Source of the DNA: Eledone cirrhosa
Lineage: Eukaryota
Length of the DNA: 64,000 nucleotides
Assembly: GCA_964016885.1 (NCBI GenBank)
Contig: OZ024764.1
Span: 3,038,001-3,102,000 of the forward strand
Direction: 5' to 3'
The number at the start of each line of letters is the position of its first letter. Position 1 is the stretch's first letter. The notes beneath the pieces were generated by a model that was not told the DNA's origin, did no database searches, and was given only the letters and a program-made list of their open reading frames with translations. Both the position numbers and the translations under genes were made by a program. Below, piece by piece: positions 8,607 through 54,190 of this stretch.

Positions 8607-8670
8607 ATTTTGTCTGATGAGGGCGTACTACAAAAACAACACAGTACCTTTGAAATATATATAATAAAAT
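8607..8670 (+). ncRNA. Minimal type-I hammerhead ribozyme inside fold-back 8484-8718
   Basis: AUUUUGU-CUGAUGA-GGGCGUACU...AGUACCUUU-GAAAU-AUAU-AUA-AUAAAAU. Confidence 0.7.
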
Positions 8671-18038: not shown

Positions 18039-18108
18039 TATTTTATCTGATGAGAACACAATTTTTGTCCCAGGATGTTGTTGTTTTCGAAATGCGCATA
18101 ATAAAATA
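18039..18108 (+). ncRNA. Minimal type-I hammerhead ribozyme
   Basis: UAUUUUAU-CUGAUGA-GAACACAA...UUGUUUUC-GAAAU-GCGC-AUA-AUAAAAUA. Confidence 0.78.
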
Positions 18109-30699: not shown

Positions 30700-31187
30700 A
30701 CATCATCATCATCATCATCATCATTTTACGTCCGCTTTTCCCTGCTTGCAAGGGTGGGACGGGAACTGATTCTGGCTTGATTTCTACAGCTGGATGCCCT
30801 TCCTAACACCAACCTCATTTACAGTGAGTGCTGGGTGCTTTTTTGCCGTGGCACCTCCACGACCACTTTACAGTGAGTGCTGGGTGCTTTTTTGCCGTGG
30901 CACCTCCACGACCACTTTACAGTGAGGGCTGGGTGCTTTTTTGCCGTGGTACCTCCACGACCACTTTTCAGTGTAGGCTGGGTGCTTTTTTGCCGTGACA
31001 CCCCCACGACCACTTTGCAGTGGAATGATAGGGACCCCAGTCCCTATCATCTCATTTCTACAGCTGAGTAAACTGGAGCAATGTGAAATAAAGTGTCTTG
31101 CTCAAGGAAACAACACATCAGCTGGTCTGAGAATTGAACTCACAACCTTTCGATTGCAAGACCAATGCTCTAACCACTAAGCCATGT
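30700..31187 (-). mobile_element. SINE family A with the internal unit repeated four times
   Basis: Reverse-complement copy with tandem gctgggtgcttttttgccgtggcacctccacgaccacttt units. Confidence 0.85.
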
Positions 31188-35114: not shown

Positions 35115-35428
35115 TTGTATTTAGGTAAGGCGGGTCTTCTCTATTACTGAGTACCGCCAAAGGTCTCGGTCCAGTGACATTGTCTTGGAGAGGTGTAAGT
35201 GTGTGAGGTCGGAGTTTATCAGGTCGTCCCAGGTTTTTCTGGGTCTGCCTACTCCGTGGCTACCGTCTATCTTTATTGCTCTGCACTTTGTTATACAGCT
35301 GTCGACTTTCATGCGCATCACGTGACCGTACCAACGTAGTCTTCTCTCGAGCAAACAACATCTGATCCCTCTTATTTCTAATTTTTTCCTTAGTTCGTTT
35401 ATGCTTTGCCGTTCACGTATTATTACGA
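35115..35428 (-). mobile_element. RTE-clade LINE 3' end (second family)
   Basis: RRLRWYGHVMRM...GRPRKTW...DRDLWR. Confidence 0.85.
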
Positions 35429-35469
35429 TATATATATATATATAACCTTCCCCAATTATATATTTCCAG

Positions 35470-35608
35470 GGAGAATGGTTTGGAACCTCACATCATGTGT
35501 ATTGAAAAGTTGTACCATGACAGCGCCGGTCTCCCAGTTCTCCATGGCAACTGGTTCTACAGACCCAACGAGACATTCCACCTAGCAACACGCAAGTTCC
35601 TGGAGAAG
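35470..35608 (+). CDS. PBRM1: Polybromo-1 exon, BAH1: ENGLEPHIMCIEKL...WFYRPNETFHLATRKFLEK
   Basis: WFYRPNETFHLATRKFLEK motif; tccag/gtattt. Confidence 0.97.
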
Positions 35609-36114
35609 GTATTTCTTCTTGTTCTTATTCTTGCTGCTCTTGTTGTTGTACATGTGTGTATTTCTGTTGTGTGTGCTTGTGTGTCTGTATGTGTGTGTTT
35701 TTTTTTGTATATATGTGTATCATATGTATATGTGTTTTCATGTATTTGTACATGTATGTTTGTATATATATATATATATATATTTACCCTTTTACCTGTT
35801 CCAGCCATGCTGGGGCACCACCTTTGAAAAATAATATAAATATATATATATATATATATGTGTGTGTATGTATGTATGTGTGGGTGTCTGAGTGTATATA
35901 TTTATCTGTAAGTGAGTCTGTCTATTTATTTATCTATCTATATGTGTGTATGTGTATATATATACACACACATACATACACACACACATACACACATACA
36001 TACGAGTGTGTGCTGAAAAGATCCTGATTTTAGGTAAAAGAAAATACTAGAGGATCACTTGATTATGATTTTATTCAATATATTCCTCTCTCAGATTCAC
36101 ACAAATATTGCAGC

Positions 36115-43519: not shown

Positions 43520-45505
43520 TAAACTAAATATATGTGTGTGTTCTCTATACTAAATGTGTGTGTGTGTTCTTTATACTAAATGTGTGTGTGTGTGTACTCT
43601 ATAGTAAATATATGTGTACTGTATAGTATATGTGCGTGTGTGTACTCTAGTAAATATATGTGCGTGTACTCTAAACGAAATATATGTGTACTCTATAGTA
43701 AATATATGTGTACTCTATACTAAATATATGTGTACTCTATACTAAATATATGTGTACTCAATACTAAATATATCTGCGTACTCTATAGTAAATGTGTGTA
43801 CTATTTAGTAAATATGTGTACTCTACAGTAAATATATGTGTACTCTACAGTAAATATGTGTACTCTACAGTAAATATATGTGTACTCTATAGTAAATATA
43901 TGTGTACTCTACAGTAAATATATGTGTACTCTATAGTAAATATATGTGTACTCTACAGTAAATATATGTACTCTATAGTAAATATATGTGTACTCTACAG
44001 TAAATATATGTGCACTCTACAGTAAATATGTGTACTCTACAGTAAATATATGTGCACTCTACAGTAAATATATGTGTACTCTACAGTAAATATATGTGTA
44101 CTCTACAGTAAATATATGTGTACTCTATAGTAAATATATGTGTACTCTATAGTAAATATGTGTGTACTCTACAGTAAATATGTGTGTACTCTACAGTAAA
44201 TATATGTGTACTCTATAGTAAATATATGTGTACTCTATAGTAAATATATGTGTACTCTACAGTAAATATATGTGTACTCTACAGTAAATATATGTGCACT
44301 CTACAGTAAATATGTGTACTCTACAGTAAATATATGTGCACTCTACAGTAAATATATGTGTACTCTACAGTAAATATATGTGTACTCTATAGTAAATATA
44401 TGTGTACTCTACAGTAAATATGTGTGTACTCTACAGTAAATATATGTGTACTCTATAGTAAATATGTGTACTCTATAGTAAATATATGTGTACTCTACAG
44501 TAAATATATGTGTACTCTACAGTAAATATATGTGTACTCTACAGTAAATATATGTGTACTCTATAGTAAATATATGTGTACTCTACAGTAAATATATGTA
44601 CTCTATAGTAAATATATGTGTACTCTATAGTAAATATGTGTACTCTACAGTAAATATATATGTACTCTATAGTAAATATATGTGTACTCTACAGTAAATA
44701 TATGTACTCTATAGTAAATATGGGTGTACTTTATAGTAAATATATGTGTACTCTACAGTAAATATATGTACTCTACAGTAAATATATGTACTCTACAGTA
44801 AATATATGTGCACTCTACAGTAAATATATGTGTACTCTACAGTAAATATATGTACTCTACAGTAAATATATGTGTACTCTACAGTAAATATATGTGTACT
44901 CTACAGTAAATATATGTGCACTCTACAGTAAATATATGTGCACTCTACAGTAAATATGTGCACTCTACAGTAAATATATGTGCACTCTACAGTAAATATA
45001 TGTGTACTCTACAGTAAATATATGTGTACTCTATAGTAAATATGTGTACTCTACAGTAAATATGTGTGTACTCTACAGTAAATATGTGTGTACTCTACAG
45101 TAAATATATGTGTACTCTATAGTAAATATATGTGTACTCTACAGTAAATATATGTGTACTCTACAGTAAATATATGTGTACTCTACAGTAAATATATGTG
45201 TACTCTATAGTAAATATATGTGTACTCTACAGTAAATATATGTACTCTATAGTAAATATATGTGTACTCTATAGTAAATATGTGTACTCTACAGTAAATA
45301 TATATGTACTCTATAGTAAATATATGTGTACTCTACAGTAAATATATGTACTCTATAGTAAATATGGGTGTACTTTATAGTAAATATATGTGTACTCTAC
45401 AGTAAATATATGTGTACTCTTTAGTAAATATGGGTGTACTCTATAGTAAATATATGTGTACTCTATAGTAAATACATGGGTGTACTCTATAGTAAATATA
45501 TGTGT
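43520..45505. repeat. 22-bp (20/22) satellite, about 2 kb
   Basis: tatatgtgtactctacagtaaa. Confidence 0.97.
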
Positions 45506-46094: not shown

Positions 46095-46170
46095 GCGACT
46101 GTGTCCATATAAAGTCCACAGAAGAAAAACCCTTCATTGCTCGCATCGACAAAATATGGGTGACTGCAGG
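46095..46170 (+). CDS. PBRM1: Polybromo-1 exon, BAH2: (G)DCVHIKSTEEKPFIARIDKIWVTA(G)
   Basis: GDCV.I...P.IARIDKIW; tccag/gtaagt; phase 1-2. Confidence 0.94.
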
Positions 46171-46627
46171 GTAAGTGTTCACTTCCTTTTATTGCTACTT
46201 AGCCTTTCTTATATATATATATATATATATATACATATATATATTAATAAGAGGAATTCCAACTTTGTCTGATTTACTCGTTTTATTTACAATCCTTTAA
46301 AATTTATAATGGTATTATAATGAAATAGTATGATAGAATATTACATTTTAAGTGTTAATTGAACAAGTACTTTCATGCTTTCGCAATCTTCAGGTTCATA
46401 ATATGTGGTGACAGTTAAGTTTGCAATTTTCATATAAATGAAGTTAATATGCCCAAGGGTACTAAGTACCCCTAGAAATACATAGGTTGTCTATGATTCA
46501 AGGTTGTTCAATGGTATTAATTTGACATACCAGAACTATAATATTAAGATAAGCAGAACAAGCAAAATTCAACCAATTTTTTAAAATAAATTAAAAAATA
46601 TAATTTAAATATTTACCTATCCTTATG

Positions 46628-46709
46628 GCCCTTACTGATCAGTTTCGCTTTGTAAAACACCAGAAATCCAATGGATTTCTAATGGAAAATCAAAGTTCAT
46701 CAGAGAAGC
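46628..46709 (-). ncRNA. Type-I hammerhead ribozyme with long stem II
   Basis: Reverse strand: UUCU-CUGAUGA-ACUUUG...AGAAAUCC.AUU.GGAUUUCU...CAAAGC-GAAAC-UGAUCA-GUA-AGGG. Confidence 0.72.
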
Positions 46710-47259
46710 ATTTTCCTTTCCTAGGGCTAAAGACCCAGGAACGATAAAATATATCGCCTTCCGCCAGCTAACACGGATCTAATGAGGTCGAAATAGTGAC
46801 CCGTATGTGAACCAGTTTGAAGTAAAAGCGGGAAAACCATAGACGTGCTGTCTATATTACTACTAAAAAAATAGCAGCTAAATAGAACAACAGATTTGTT
46901 CTCTACATAACGGAGAATAATAAATGTAGTTAATATGCTCAAGGGTACTAAGTACCCCTAGAAACACATGCACCTGTTGGTTTTCACTTCAATTTATTAT
47001 AAATTTCCGGTTGGTTGGTTGGTTGGATAACTGGGAGGTTGTTTATATATTGTGAAAGTTCTTTTGTCACACATTCTTTGACCTCAGTGACTAGGTTTTT
47101 ATTTTGTGAGTTCACAGAATGTGTGATGAAAGAGCTTTAACAATATATAAACAATCTTCTGATTATCGAACCAACCAGAAACTTATAATAAATCGAAGTG
47201 AAAACCAACAGCTGCATGTGTTTTTATTGGCAGCATGACCCCTCAGAGTATAATATATA

Positions 47260-48260
47260 CTGCGTACGAAAGGCCGGTTATATGATGCCTGTGTTAGGAG
47301 CGCGATGCTGCATGGTAGTGAGACATGTGCAGCAACTGCAGAGGATATGCGACGGCTGGAGAGAAATGAGGCAAGCATGCTCCGTTGGATGTGCAGTGTA
47401 AATGTGCGTGAACGACCCAGCATAAATGAGAGAGAAACTGTGTCTGAGAGGGATAGAATGTAGTGTATGGGAGAGGAGACTGAGGTGGTATGGACATGTG
47501 ATGTGTTGAGAGAGAAACTGTGTCTGAGAGGGATAGAATGTAGTGTACAGGACAGGAGACTGAGGTGGTATGGACATGTGATGTGTTGAGAGAGAAACTG
47601 TGTCTGAGAGGGATAGAATGTAGTGTGTGAGAGAGGAGACTGCGGTGGTATGGACATGTGATGTGTTGAGAGAGAAACTGTGTCTGAGAGGGATAGAATG
47701 TAGTGTACGGGACAGGAGACTGAGGTGGTATGGACATGTGATGTGTTGAGAGAGAAACTGTGTCTGAGAGGGATAGAATGTAGTGTACGGGACAGGAGAC
47801 TGAGGTGGTATGGACATGTGATGTGCTGAGAGGGATAGAATGTGGTGTACGGGAGAGGAGACTGAGGTGGTATGGACATGTGATGTGTTGAGAGAGAAAC
47901 TGTGTCTGAGAGGGATAGAATGTAGTGTACGGGAGAGGAGACTGAGGTGGTATGGACATGTGATGTGTTGAGAGAGAAACTGTGTACGGGAGAGGAGACT
48001 GCGGTGGTATGGACATGTGATGCGCATGGAGGATGACCGATGGGTGAAGAAGTGCCAGGAAATGCCAGTTGAAGGAAGACGTGGTAGAGGTAGACCACAA
48101 AAAACATGGGCGGAGGTGGTGAGAACAGACTTCAGATCGCTGAAGCTCACGGTGGAGATGACGGAGGACCGTGACAAGTGGAGAGATGGTGTGCTGAATA
48201 GGACCCGTCCCACCCTTGCAAGCAGGGAAAAGCGAATGTAAAATGATGATGATGATGATG
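47260..48260 (+). mobile_element. RTE 3' fragment with internal 80-bp tandem expansion
   Basis: KGRLYDACVR.AMLHGSET...MLRWMC, then about 7 x 80-bp units, then MRMEDDRWVKK...GRPQKTW and tail. Confidence 0.88.
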
Positions 48261-48375
48261 ATATATATATATATATATATAAAATGGCTGACTGTATACT
48301 CTTGTGTTTTTCTATTTCATCCTTTATTTCTCCTATCATCTGAAACATTGACTTTTCCTAATTTTTCTTTGACAG

Positions 48376-48548
48376 GGGAAATATTTTCTTCTACGGTCCT
48401 CTATTTGTACGTCCATCTGATGTGGAGCACTCTCCAACTAGAATGTTCTACTGTCGTGAAGTATTCTACAGCTGCAAGGAAACCTCCTTTCCTGCCATGA
48501 CCGTCCTCGGAAGATGTGCTGTCCTTCATATTAAGGACTACTGCTCAT
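48376..48548 (+). CDS. PBRM1: Polybromo-1 exon, BAH2: GNIFFYGPLFVRPSDVEHSPTRMFYCREVF...GRCAVLHIKDYCS
   Basis: FYGP.F..P...EH.PT.MFY..EVF; gacag/gtaaat; phase 2-1. Confidence 0.95.
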
Positions 48549-48917
48549 GTAAATACCACCCACCCACCCACCCAACCACCCACGCAACCTACTACCCTAC
48601 CATCCAACCAACCATCCAACTTACCTACCACCCTACCATCCAACCACACAACCACCCAACCAACCACCCTACCATCCAACCAACAACCCTGCCACCCAAC
48701 CAACCACCCAATCAAACAACATACTTTGCAACATATAGTTACGACCCTTTATGTTCTGAGTTCAAATCCTACTAAGTTTAGCTTTGCCTTTCATCCTGAC
48801 AGGGCCGAGAAAAAATAGAGTCCCAGTAATGCACTGGGGTCGATTTAATTGACTGCCCCTTCCCCCCGAAATTGTGGGCCTTGTGCCTTAATCAGAAACC
48901 ACAATTTTTAAGGGGCA

Positions 48918-49265
48918 ATTTGAAAACAATTCCTTAACATCAGTATGAGTGGCCAGTGACAGCTGGTTTGAACAGAACAATGTGAGAGAATTCTGGCCAA
49001 ATATCGTTGGTTTAAATGCTAAAGGGTTATGTATTTACCCCAATGTACCCAAACCTCAAATTTAAGTGTACCTACCCTAATACACCCACATCAAACTTAA
49101 CCCTTTAGCATTTACGTTACTCTATATATACTATTGTATTTTCACAGTAAAGGCTTTACCTCACATAATATCTCACAAAATATCAAAACTATGAGATTTT
49201 GATGTTATGTATTTTGAGAACAATACCTTACCATCAGTATGAGTGGCCAGTTATGGCCAGTTTAA
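48918..49265 (+). mobile_element. Two partial copies of the TTAA MITE
   Basis: A 3' end at 48918-49028 and a single-unit copy starting TTAACCCTTTAGCATTTA at 49097. Confidence 0.65.
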
Positions 49266-49380
49266 TCAAATTCCTGGCCTTGCCCATAGTAGAAATCATT
49301 ATATGTAAATATTAACCTGTTCCCTGATTTTCTTCTTCTTTTTCTTCTGTTTCTCTCTTGTTCGGTACTGTCCACAACAG

Positions 49381-49478
49381 ACCGTATTACAGAAGTAGCA
49401 GAACAAAACGTGTACATATGTGAATCTAAATACCTTGAAACTGAACGCAGCATACGAAAATTGGCTAAGGGCCTTAAG
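49381..49478 (+). CDS. PBRM1: Polybromo-1 exon, end of BAH2: (Y)RITEVAEQNVYICESKYLETERSIRKLAKGLK
   Basis: R.TE..E..VYICES.Y; aacag/gtatat; phase 1-0. Confidence 0.94.
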
Positions 49479-49644
49479 GTATATCTAAAAGTTAGATCGG
49501 TTTAAGTATTATCTCCCCTTTTATTTATATTTTGTTTGTTTACTTTTTCATTTTTGTTTTATATATTTGTTTTTTTTGTATTTTCATTTACTTTTTAAAA
49601 TATATTTTTTTAATTTTAATATATTTTCAATGTGTCTAAAATTT

Positions 49645-50545
49645 AGTATCAGCAATGAAAACACTGGTAGAAACATTGTTTCCTTGGTCTGATCTGATGA
49701 TCAGCTCTTTTCTTCTGCCAGGAGTTGTGACTGACAGATAGTATCAGTAATGGAAAGACCAATGGAGACATTGTTTCCTTGGTCTGATCTGATGATCAGC
49801 TCCTTTCTTCTGTCAGGAGTTGTGACTAACAGATAGTATCAGTAATGGAAAGACCAATGGAGACATTGTTTCCTTGGTCTGATCTGATGATCAGCTCCTT
49901 TCTTCTGTCAGGAGTTGTGACTGACAGATAGTATCAGTAATGGAAAGACCAATGGAGACATTGTTTCCTTGGTCTGATCTGATGATCAGCTCTTTTCTTC
50001 TGTCAGGAGTTGTGACTGACAGATAGTATCAGTAATGGAAAGACCAATGGAGACATTGTTTCCTTGGTCTGATCTGATGATCAGCTCCTTTCTTCTGTCA
50101 GGAGTTGTGACTAACAGATAGTATCAGTAATGGAAAGACCAATGGAGACATTGTTTCCTTGGTCTGATCTGATGATCAGCTCCTTTCTTCTGCCAGGAGT
50201 TGTGACTGACAGATAGTATCAGTAATGGAAAGACCAATGGAGACATTGTTTCCTTGGTCTGATCTGTTGATCAGCTCTTTTCTTCTGCCAGGAGTTGTGA
50301 CCAACAGATAGTATCAGTAATGGAAAGACCAATGGAAACATTGTTTCCTTGGTCTGATCTGATGATCAGCTCCTTTCTTCTGCCAGGAGTTGTGACTGAC
50401 AGATAGTATCAGTAATGGAAAGACCAATGGAAACATTGTTTCCTTGGTCTGATCTGTTGATCAGCTCCTTTCTTCTGCCAGGAGTTGTGACTGACAGATA
50501 GTATCAGTAATGGGAAGACCAATGGAAACGTTGTTTCCTTGGACC
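49645..50545. repeat. 9 x 95-bp satellite derived from a SINE tail
   Basis: Period 95; matches the reverse complement of about 5005-5088. Confidence 0.92.
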
Positions 50546-51175
50546 TGTCAGACAATTGGTTCGGAACCCATTATTTATTTTTTTTGTTTCCTCTTGTTTC
50601 TTTTAACGTTTTACTTGTTCCAGTCATGAGACTAGCCATACTGGGGCAGTACTTATTTCATCAATCTTAATTTTTTTTTTCTTGCCGTACCATTAATGTA
50701 TATGTATATATGTGTGTATATATATATATGTACATATGAATATACCTGTGTGTGTGTATATATATAAACGTTTGTAGTTGTAAGGCCAAAATAATGCAGG
50801 TATGGTTATAGAATATAAATGCAAATGCAAAAGATATTGTTGACAAGTAGTCTTTTACCTTAAATTTATTTAAATATCTTTAATTTTCGAGATAATATCT
50901 CTTCTTCGGAGGGAAGTAAAGTGGTTAATCCAGCGTTCTAAATAGCTTACCAAGCTATTTAGAACGCTGGATTAACAACTTTACCTCCCTGCGAAGAAGA
51001 GATATTATCTCGAAAATTAAGGATATTTAAATAAATTTAAAGTAAAAGACTAATAGTCAACAATATCTTTTGCATTTGCATTTATATTCTATAACCATAC
51101 CTGCATTGTTTTGGCCTTACAACTACAAACGTTTATACCTCATTACACAATGCTTCAAGTGAACTATAACTTCCT

Positions 51176-51229
<54 letters not shown>

Positions 51230-51301
51230 TGAATAATATATATATATATAAGAGTGAATAATAACATGGTTGACAGTACAAAATAAGGATATTTATTTAC
51301 G

Positions 51302-51406
51302 GTCTTACAATTGTTTCAATGATAGAAATGTCTATAAATTGCTAAATACTGGAGAAAGTATAACTCAATTTACAATACATCTAAATTCAATCATTTCATC
51401 AGAGAC
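51302..51406 (-). ncRNA. Type-I hammerhead ribozyme with long stem II insert
   Basis: Reverse strand: GUCU-CUGAUGA-AAUGAU...AUCAUU-GAAAC-AAUU-GUA-AGAC. Confidence 0.78.
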
Positions 51407-51767
51407 AAATAAGAAATATAAAATATATGCGTAACAGTAAACTTGAAAATTCAAATTACTACATCAATAATATTATTAGTGATAAATAAATAAATAAATA
51501 AATAAAGGAAGGGGAACAGATGGAAATGAGAGAGAAAGAAAGAAAATGACGAAAGAAGGAACGAAGATATAGTTAAATATATAACCGGCAAAATTTACGA
51601 ACATCAAAATAAATAAATATAATATTAATAATAATAAAGATGTATACAGAAGAGAGATGAAGGGATATAGCATAGGAAGAGAGGAAGGATAAGTAAGGAA
51701 GATGAGAAAGAAATAGAGGAAACTTAAGAGGGATGAGGAAGCGGAGGGGGATAGAAATTAATCATGA

Positions 51768-51806
<39 letters not shown>

Positions 51807-51934
51807 AAAGTTCTATTTAAATTGTTGGGATACAACAAGCAAATATTTTTATAACTGATATAAAGCACTCAACAAATAATTGGAGTAAAAATACAATATT
51901 AACAAATGGAAACTATATTTATAAAACCATATTT

Positions 51935-51997
51935 ATTTCATTATACATATTTCAAGGACACCAAGTTAAATTATGGTGTGCTTTCATCAGATAAAAT
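51935..51997 (-). ncRNA. Minimal type-I hammerhead ribozyme (paralogue of 40259-40321)
   Basis: Reverse strand: AUUUUAU-CUGAUGA-AAGCACACCA...UGGUGUCCUU-GAAAU-AUGU-AUA-AUGAAAU. Confidence 0.75.
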
Positions 51998-52612
51998 ATA
52001 ATATAGAGCAGTTTTATAAATAAATATTGACATACCCTTAAAGAATGCAACCATTACTGTACATACATATATATATATAAACGTTGAACATATATACATG
52101 CCTATTTATTTGTTGTTGTTTTTAAATGTATACCCAATTACACCTCTCAAAGGCAATGACACACGACCGTGACCTCTGGCGTCACGCAGTAATACAGAGT
52201 ACCCGACCTCCCATGTGTATAAGCTGAAGCATATAGACAATATGCCCCCACACCCCCCACCGCAAGGCGGTCGTGGAGGTGCCACGGCAAAAAAGCACCC
52301 AGCCCACACTGTAAAGTGGACGTGTAGGCGCCACGGCAAAAAGGCACCCAGCACTCACTGTAAATGAGGTTGGTGTTAGGAAGGGCATCCAGCTGTAGAA
52401 ATCAAGCCAAATCAGTTCCTGTATGAGCAAAGCATGGTCAGCCGACCAGACACTGCCCACAACAGGACAACCCGTCTAACCCATGCTAGCGTGGAAGAAT
52501 GGACGTAAAACGGTGATGATGATGATGATATATATATACACATATATATGAGCGGAACAAGCAAACATTAAACAATCTTTTAAATAAATTAAAATATGAT
52601 TTAAATTCTAGT

Positions 52613-52692
52613 GCTATGACCGACGGTTTCGCTTATCAAAAGATTGGAAGTTCAGAGAATTTCCAATGGAAAGATATAGCTCTTCAGATAGC
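52613..52692 (-). ncRNA. Canonical type-I hammerhead ribozyme
   Basis: Reverse strand: GCUAU-CUGAAGA-GCU...AUUGGAA...UUCCAAU...AGC-GAAACC.GUC.GGUC-AUAGC. Full core, G10.1:C11.1 pair, GUC cleavage triplet. Confidence 0.85.
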
Positions 52693-53385
52693 TTTTCCAA
52701 ACCTACTAGACTTAAATCCACGTAGATGTAGACGTATCGCTTTCTGCCCGGTGAATGAATCAAGCCGTTAAAATGACCACCACACAAATGGGCCATTAGA
52801 AAAAGCGGGAATTATAGACTCGTTGATATTTCATTTTACTAGAAACAGCAGCATGATACAACATTTTTTTCTCTACATTAAGGAGAATTCAGATAAATGA
52901 TATAGATGTGGTAGATGTTCCAGTAGGTATTAAGTACCCACGGAAATATATATGGTGTCTATAATAGTGGTTGTTCTATGGTACTGATTTGAGATACCAG
53001 AACTGTAAATATGAGCAGAACAAGTAAACATTAAACAATCTTTTAAATAAATATATATATAGATATATATATAACGAAGAAAATGTGGTAAGGAACCAGT
53101 TGGACCATAACGCACCAAAGTACTCAATACTTAGGGTAGTAGAGTGGGTAATAGGAACGAGTAGGACCCCGACGGCTGAGCTCAAGCCGTTTCGACGTCT
53201 GAATTAGCCGTCGAAACGGCTTGAGCTCAGCCGTCGGGGTCCTACTCGTTCCTATATATATATAGGAGGTGAGTTTTATTGTAGCACAATAAAGCAATGC
53301 AAATATCGGATAAGTAGCACTCAAGAGTTTATAGGACTGGAGTATAAATAATGTAAAATCAAAAGATGGTTAAAAGAGTTCCATG

Positions 53386-53456
53386 TATTTTATTATGCGC
53401 ATTTCAAAAACAAATATCATCATGGGATGATATTTGCGTTCTCATCAGATAAAATA
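53386..53456 (-). ncRNA. Minimal type-I hammerhead ribozyme (family of 18039-18108) in fold-back 53347-53573
   Basis: Reverse strand: UAUUUUAU-CUGAUGA-GAACG-CAAAUAUCAUC.CCAU.GAUGAUAUUUG-UUUUU-GAAAU-GCGC-AUA-AUAAAAUA. Confidence 0.8.
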
Positions 53457-54190
53457 GGGAGACATGACATGAAGCTTAAAAAACACTTGCAAGCAGTGAA
53501 TGATATCTGTTTTTGAAATGCGCATAATAAAATACATGGAACTCTTTTAACCATCTTTTGATTTTATATTATATGTATATATATATATATATATAAATGA
53601 AAGGTATAGAAAACATTGTAGCAAAAAGCCAACAGTATTCCATAATATATAAAGTGACTATAGCGTCAAAATAGGAAAAATAGTTAACGTAAGATGTGGG
53701 AAAAATAAATCAAACTCATCTCAAAGAGAATCAGGATATAGATTCATCCACAGAATTTAGTGAAATCCAGAGAAAAATCAATAGAGCCTTAACTCTTGAT
53801 AAAATAAAGTTTAAAATACTCATCCTTCAATTTGGAAAAACTTCAAATGCTGTGTATAGTCTGAAAGACTATTTCACAAAAACTTTCGGTGGAGATGGTC
53901 ACGGTTGGAATCCGATCCTCAGCAGAGCTCAACTCGATAACCAAAATTCTCACAGACTAATATGCCAAAAAGGGAATTTAAAACAGGCTAGTTCACCATC
54001 ATGCGTGATTATGAAAAATAAAACGCACATGTGGAAGGACAGGGCTGGTGACGTCAGAATGAGACGAATGTTTGTTTACAAGAAACAACAGTCAAAAAAC
54101 ATTCCGAAAAAAAAAACTCTACAATAAGGAGTTCAGCAAAAAGCAATATTATCGCGGTTTTTTATTTAAAAAAAAAAATATATATATATA

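Follow-up and report, generated by a model that had tools for sequence, protein, structure and literature searches.

A probable non-LTR retrozyme family of Eledone cirrhosa whose short hammerhead units show two fixed ends and Penelope-type insertion anatomy

Non-LTR (long terminal repeat) retrozymes of Metazoa have been described by Cervera and de la Pena (2020, PMC7229834), and animal retrozymes have been related to the pseudo-LTRs (pLTRs) of Penelope-like elements (PLEs) in a recent preprint (Li, Clavereau and Pollet 2026; bioRxiv 10.64898/2026.07.22.740005). Their mobilisation by PLEs has so far been argued from common hammerhead ribozymes, co-occurrence and pLTR homology, and the text of the preprint leaves the mechanism open. 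According to PMC8557442, PLE insertions consist of partial tandems truncated at the 5' end, next to which lies an inverted copy; a tail of 30-40 bp occurs at one end only, and (TA)n targets are preferred. The same insertion anatomy is reported for rotifer Penelopes (PMC3846280). In vitro, a PLE reverse transcriptase (RT) starts at two internal RNA sites, the tail being the stretch between them, and AT-rich DNA is cut on both strands (PMC11167929). Here, we analyzed 64,000 bp of the Eledone cirrhosa genome (assembly GCA_964016885.1, contig OZ024764.1, positions 3,038,001 to 3,102,000 of the forward strand; referred to as the window) that contain two related hammerhead units. We consider it highly probable that both are dispersed copies of a hammerhead tandem element of ~460-490 bp that lacks an open reading frame (ORF), i.e., a non-LTR retrozyme, with two fixed starts and with a PLE likely reverse-transcribing it in trans. 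It is a new family of a known kind of element, and its components are each known already.

Unit 1 (46435..46964, minus strand) comprises ~1.1 rounds of a 486-bp unit and belongs to a subfamily here named f1, while unit 2 (52546..53052, minus strand) comprises ~1.1 rounds of the 463-bp unit of subfamily f2. A previous sequence-only reading had described the two as homologous, circularly permuted and terminally redundant with these periods, and our alignments bear this out. Global alignment of the monomers gave a score of -13 without rotation and of 271 after rotating unit 1 by 107 bp, with 333 of 443 columns identical; the best rotated score in 30 shuffles was 11. The second round of unit 1 begins within a terminal redundancy at 46920..46969, visible as a direct repeat of 50 nt (46434-46483 and 46920-46969, 94%, spacing 486). 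Its final ~5-10 bp are microhomology common to an adjoining palindromic repeat, so that the true overlap is nearer 40-44 bp, somewhat shorter than had been read. In unit 2, the unit start is repeated at a spacing of 463 over ~44 bp (53009..53052).

The RNA-sense 3' ends of the two units lie at different positions, named site A (unit 1) and site B (unit 2). Unit 1 therefore carries a tail, which runs from site B to site A (~105 nt; 46435..46540, minus strand, z -2.6) and contains two conserved hairpins at about 46536-46506 and 46475-46453. The other fixed 3' end of the family, site B, is AT-rich and internal in this copy (46537..46543, minus strand), where it marks the 5' foot of the first hairpin in the tail. 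The 5' end of unit 1 is truncated and joined to the palindromic repeat. Unit 2 has no tail and both its flanks are (TA)-rich; the region corresponding to the tail is internal (52895..53008, minus strand, z -2.7), with the f2 site A mapping near 52890-52900. The GC contents are 33.5% and 34.6%, and the longest ATG ORFs on either strand of the circle encode 40 and 60 amino acids. Each unit has one minus-strand hammerhead with a long stem II and no meaningful ORF, as had also been claimed, and with one hammerhead each both window copies are likely a dead end.

Copies were collected by five DNA searches of the same genome. At a first look, each search had ~1500-2400 candidates; 40 of them were then scored and 30 retrieved. 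Merging the 150 fetched loci by sequence gave 122 distinct loci with 171 arms; arms shorter than 45 nt or below 80% identity were dropped, and one duplicated insertion (L035 and L040) is counted twice. They represent three subfamilies, f1, f2 and f3 (period 459, found in locus L122), that are ~70-75% identical and collinear over the whole period. With ends assigned to a site when lying within 12 nt of it on the ribozyme strand, 64 arms have their 3' end at site A, 100 at site B and 7 elsewhere. These 164 of 171 arms compare with ~11% expected under uniform starts, and the proportion was 86 of 88 among loci found only by short hammerhead queries. All three subfamilies show the same two-site geometry. 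TA repeats adjoin 153 of the 171 arm 3' ends, and the 5' ends are scattered round the unit. Head-to-head two-arm insertions combine an A end with a B end in 41 of 43 cases, with neither A+A nor B+B pairs.

Site B is located 93 nt (f1) or 86 nt (f3) downstream of the predicted ribozyme cut and site A another 104-111 nt beyond; in unit 2, a copy with a small deletion, site B lies 74 nt from the cut. Clusters of f2 5' ends at -20 and -11 were discarded as a product of a deletion in the unit 2 reference and of query selection. Each of the two element ends shares 3-5 AT nucleotides with the target as microhomology, and in copies with a second round the terminal junction matches the internal site over 3-5 AT bases. 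The 107-bp offset of the window units arises because unit 1 ends at site A, whereas unit 2 ends at site B. Fixed sites, not random entry, thus explain their differing starts, and the earlier proposal that the starts mark arbitrary entry points on a circle was not upheld once the start points of the genomic copies had been collected.

The insertions closely resemble those of endonuclease-bearing PLEs, which likewise show two fixed 3' sites, variable 5' truncation, partial tandems, an inverted truncated partner, a tail at one end and insertion at (TA)n (PMC8557442, PMC3846280, PMC11167929). The hammerhead ~90 nt upstream of the RT start has its counterpart in PAc, with a cut at +26 and starts at +111-118 (PMC11167929). 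In contrast to these PLEs, the element has neither an RT nor a GIY-YIG ORF, its tail measures 104-111 nt instead of the 30-40 bp in print (PMC8557442), and its ends show AT microhomology, whereas the PAc start site is described as not homologous to the cut DNA (PMC11167929). The coding PLE families N1 and N2 of this genome display the same two-ended pattern at TA, with ends ~+14 and ~+143 (N1) or ~+120 and ~+165 (N2) after their hammerheads. Tails measure ~45-125 nt in other families of the genome and ~70-95 nt in other hammerhead families, so that a tail of ~105 nt is ordinary here. The sequence-only reading had set a retrozyme against a partial tandem of Penelope pLTRs as its alternative. 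Both terms stand, the retrozyme as the element and Penelope as the mode of insertion, and neither rules out the other.

The predicted type I hammerhead of unit 1 (46627..46709, minus strand, core CUGAUGA, cut at 46633/46632) has a stem II insert of 50 nt and a palindromic stem III/loop 3. Its first stem II pair is an A-C mismatch, and a strict motif scan missed it owing to a weak stem I. The hammerhead predicted for unit 2 (52612..52693, minus strand, core CUGAAGA, cut at 52618/52617) is also type I, with the same insert length and a palindromic stem III/loop 3. Rfam reported no hammerhead at gathering score in the window and none at E ≤ 10 in 46300-53700, so that the ribozyme call rests on the motif scan and covariation. 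The strict motif was present in 59 of 71 core copies, 58 of these 59 having a stem II insert of 49-50 nt. In 13 aligned copies, the structure consisting of stems I-III and two tail hairpins was 95.9% paired, and pairing dropped to 34-42% when it was slid along the alignment. Double-sided changes numbered 33 compared with 13 in shuffles, a control that ignores relatedness; one stem I pair reads C-G, A-U and G-C across the three subfamilies. Site B lies at the 5' foot of a hairpin that hardly varies, and site A just 3' of the second one. Circular minimum free energy folds were 61% and 59% paired, unit 1 alone being clearly below mononucleotide shuffles.

Similar minimal hammerheads of type I, with a short helix I, a large helix II and a palindromic helix III/loop 3, have been described in PLEs, the palindrome being regarded as suited to cleavage in dimers (Cervera and de la Pena 2014, PMC4209133). 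The hammerheads found here differ in a helix III of 3 pairs, a much longer stem II and the frequent loss of the first stem II pair (G10.1-C11.1) in f1 and f3.

The family agrees with metazoan non-LTR retrozymes (PMC7229834; bioRxiv 10.64898/2026.07.22.740005) in a short, ORF-less head-to-tail unit, one predicted type I hammerhead per unit, a GC content of ~34% (i.e., below 45%), thousands of candidate copies, monomers and dimers, and co-occurrence with PLEs. More than one round is present in 89 of the 171 arms, and the unit size of 459-486 bp falls within the 51-972 bp of the preprint. Two complete hammerheads were found in 16 of 171 arms; the preprint defines retrozymes with at least two consecutive complete hammerheads as active. 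Differences concern the unit size, which is ~170-400 nt in the invertebrates of PMC7229834, the very long stem II and the copy length, as no long arrays were observed and 2.45 rounds are the maximum. Xenopus families are reported to have 21 matches to PLEs in the preprint, whereas no related pLTR parent was found here. Among further relatives, Chlamys elements such as MRC1 are also non-autonomous, PLE-mobilised and equipped with pLTRs and head-to-tail multicopy insertions, but occur in green algae, belong to a clade described as lacking canonical hammerheads and have 3' sequence in common with known autonomous partners (PMC8557442). Plant LTR retrozymes, with a type III hammerhead in LTRs on either side of an internal region, do not match in view of the type I topology and the missing LTR-internal-LTR layout, and the predicted circular folds are not highly paired like rod-like viroids or hepatitis delta virus-like RNAs. 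The annotation of octopus repeats counts 31 Penelope-like families among recent elements and does not mention ribozymes or retrozymes in its main text (PMC13282606). Titles and abstract openings yielded neither a published match to the family nor a retrozyme with two fixed ends, a scope that leaves outside most subscription papers, Repbase, Dfam and the preprint supplements; a library entry for the family may exist.

A search with PF01541 located 150 GIY-YIG places in the genome, 110 of which were examined. The unit was present at three of them (L122, L159 and L198), each time as a separate insertion. In L159 and L198, the main arm lies at least 2 kb from the endonuclease and on the opposite strand. 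In L122, a unit dimer follows an RT/GIY-YIG ORF at a distance of 1.5 kb and with the same orientation. The protein of this locus, P0001, has an RT domain (Pfam RVT_1, E 1.5e-6), a GIY-YIG match and a CxxxxCxxC linker, and was called Neptune-type because this linker is assigned to Neptune and Nematis PLEs (PMC8557442). The mobiliser is likely a TA-targeting Neptune-type PLE of this genome; no coding parent related to the unit in sequence was found in the 110 places. A near full-length Neptune-type PLE, a copy of N1, is present in locus L121 (1280-7400), with hammerheads 4979 bp apart in a pLTR-ORF-pLTR arrangement and a frameshifted ORF; both of its end sites lie at internal AT-rich motifs, and the ORF starts just after the second one.

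Three other origins were weighed against a non-autonomous retrozyme. Entry of the RT into a circular RNA at arbitrary points, producing randomly permuted copies, would account for the window copies starting 107 bp apart and for the seven arms that end away from A or B. It receives almost no weight from us, since 164 of 171 arms in the three subfamilies, and 86 of 88 short-query arms, terminate no more than 12 nt from A or B, and is refuted on the sample examined. The units might also be truncated 3' ends of a long coding PLE with tandem pLTR-like repeats, as they have fixed ends, a tail and inverted pairs in the manner of PLE termini and the L122 dimer follows an RT/GIY-YIG ORF in the same sense. 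As a coding parent, L122 was ruled out, since its coding element, a copy of N1, terminates in a hammerhead that belongs to it, and a TA run of ~230 bp lies between this element and the dimer. The unit is missing from other N1 copies, and the 5' flanks of 75 solo arms revealed no common extension (7 pairs matched, one of them a duplicated locus). Furthermore, the period closes on itself and lacks an ORF in f1, f2 and f3, which, together with the missing link to the 110 GIY-YIG places examined, points to a non-autonomous element. We therefore regard termini of a long coding element, which the sequence-only reading had named as the finding that would overturn it, as an improbable origin. Local tandem duplication or satellite-type amplification is a very unlikely source of the redundancies: the window is rich in minisatellites and the preprint discusses local amplification of PLE ends (bioRxiv 10.64898/2026.07.22.740005), but the copies are spread over many contigs, comprise fractional rounds from a fixed end and lie between TA runs or in inverted A+B pairs.

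For the retrozyme, we tentatively propose, with rather less than an even chance of being right throughout, that a Neptune-type PLE is exploited by a minimal parasite made of circular RNA, a self-cleaved and ligated circle of ~470 nt whose conserved two-hairpin tail sets two RT starts, one per nicked (TA)n strand. The main reading, highly probable as stated at the outset, comprises the following steps. Copies with two complete hammerheads would be transcribed on the ribozyme strand, cut themselves to monomers and be ligated into circles, a step modelled on PMC7229834 for and against which we see the scales balanced; the 16 arms with two hammerheads could serve as the source of monomers. The GIY-YIG endonuclease of the PLE would then nick a (TA)n target, consistent with the observed target bias. 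In line with the fixed ends and the in vitro data of PMC11167929, the RT of the PLE would initiate internally on the RNA, either at site B, which lies 86-93 nt past the cut, or another ~105 nt along at site A. Copying would proceed through the cut site for 0.1-2.5 rounds, the range seen in the arms, and its variable stops beyond one round would leave the terminal redundancy. Finally, both target strands would act as primers, one from A and the other from B, to yield the head-to-head A+B pairs that are observed; of the window copies, which belong to sister subfamilies, unit 1 would have started at A and unit 2 at B. If the circular parasite reading is true, the genomic copies record rolling-circle target-primed reverse transcription with two primers, and the retrozyme circular RNA model and the two-start-site mechanism of PLEs are joined in one small RNA.

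A retrozyme-type unit copied beyond a single round from circular or head-to-tail RNA, as the sequence-only reading had concluded, agrees with the arms: 145 of 171 cross the cut site, 29 of them at least twice. With a self-cleaved linear monomer, priming at B or A would give products of only ~90 or ~200 nt, so that the template was circular, uncut or subject to template jumps. Circles copied over more than unit length were already proposed in PMC4209133 and PMC7229834, and we judge a circular template an evenly balanced call. A serious competitor, placed somewhat short of even, keeps the element and the PLE machinery and makes the circle unneeded, the template being either an uncut linear RNA transcribed head to tail from genomic dimers or longer arrays, or linear monomers between which the RT jumps. 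It is favored by in vitro results in which a PLE preferred unprocessed RNA and hammerhead mutants inserted normally, cleavage being unneeded (PMC11167929), by a longest arm of only 2.45 rounds, by the weak first stem II pair in f1 and f3, and by arms that hold two different common alleles in their two rounds. Such differences between two common family alleles make up 49 of 291 within-copy differences, compared with ~13 expected, 15 of the 49 lying at homopolymer edges, and some copies may thus have had two templates. Conversely, copying that truncates 5' ends would shorten a linear tandem in each generation, yet three old subfamilies keep near-dimers, whose persistence would require circles, template jumps or unseen master arrays. 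The ribozyme core is also conserved with compensatory changes. Repeats within an f1 copy are closer to each other (0.024) than the family median (0.064), which speaks against a linear template in part, as it fits both readings.

Besides the in vitro use of unprocessed RNA and the allele differences, further observations weigh against the main reading of a hammerhead retrozyme mobilised by a PLE. The loci behind all counts are top BLAST hits rather than a random sample of the copies. Ends set by ribozyme cutting were not supported overall, as only 12 of 171 5' ends fall at the cut site (-8 to +12), with ~8 expected if uniform, and 10 of the 12 belong to f1. The 13 covariation rows form three clades, so that the independent events are few. 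Stem II begins with a pair that PMC4209133 describes as highly conserved; it is A-C and not G-C in 31 of 38 matched f1 copies and U-U in the f3 alignment rows, a loss that argues against strong ribozyme activity. In Xenopus, 8 of 9 retrozyme dimers reportedly showed no cleavage (bioRxiv 10.64898/2026.07.22.740005). Lastly, no sequence-related coding parent was present in the examined 110 of 150 GIY-YIG places, and profile searches against the N1 and N2 ends gave weak matches only.

What is new is that a retrozyme lacking an ORF shows the complete insertion signature of PLEs, that it does so in three subfamilies that have diverged, and that its inverted pairs follow an A+B rule almost without exception. 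This signature supports PLE-type target-primed reverse transcription of the retrozyme, and the ~470-nt element offers a substrate for asking whether the template is circular.

In the window, the A end of unit 1 adjoins, across a 4-bp TA remnant and in the same sense, the 5'-truncated 3' end of a copy of the coding PLE family N2 with its own minimal hammerhead (46240..46432, minus strand); a template switch from N2 to the retrozyme is possible at this junction. On the other side, microhomology joins the 5' end of unit 1 to a head-to-head palindrome (46959..47255) that belongs to a different abundant family and whose missing left outer end is replaced by unit 1. This arrangement goes back either to template switching at the time of insertion or to sequence lost afterwards by deletion. 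This palindrome family has 4453 first-look candidates in the genome; its relatives contain, by eye, a hammerhead-like core that is degenerate in the window copy. Unit 1 is located between exon-like stretches (46097-46170 and 48380-48549) of a plus-strand BAH-domain gene, the latter matching Pfam BAH with an E value of 3.8e-12, and the predicted ribozyme is consequently antisense to the host transcript. Further exon-like stretches of this gene, which has two BAH matches and is possibly polybromo-1-like, were noted at 35366-35824 and 49381-49478. A crude scan downstream of unit 2 found no exon.

Hammerhead elements are common in the window, which contains eight strict matches including unit 2, compared with 0-1 in 20 shuffles. 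The motif scan assigned seven further type I motifs to other families, at 8614-8663 and 18047-18100 on the plus strand and at 40314-40266, 51402-51306, 51990-51942, 53448-53394 and, weakly, 8267-8132 on the minus strand. At 51402, the stem II insert measures 78 nt, and several of the seven show two fixed TA-flanked ends 85-95 nt apart. Long TA-flanked palindromes at 50763-51137, 53151-53255 and 53343-53577 (arms of 186, 50 and 78 nt) are likely inverted PLE ends. Elsewhere in the genome, an unrelated hammerhead tandem with a period of 466, an inverted arm and ends ~229 and ~299 nt after the cut (L195, 4784-5900) is a second retrozyme-like family of the same anatomy, and L144 holds another hammerhead tandem with a period of 598. 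A partial tRNA match at 31127-31184 (Rfam, 30.5 bits) is likely the head of a short interspersed element. Minisatellites occupy 43591-45505 (22 bp), 47427-48022 (80 bp) and 49644-50542 (95 bp).

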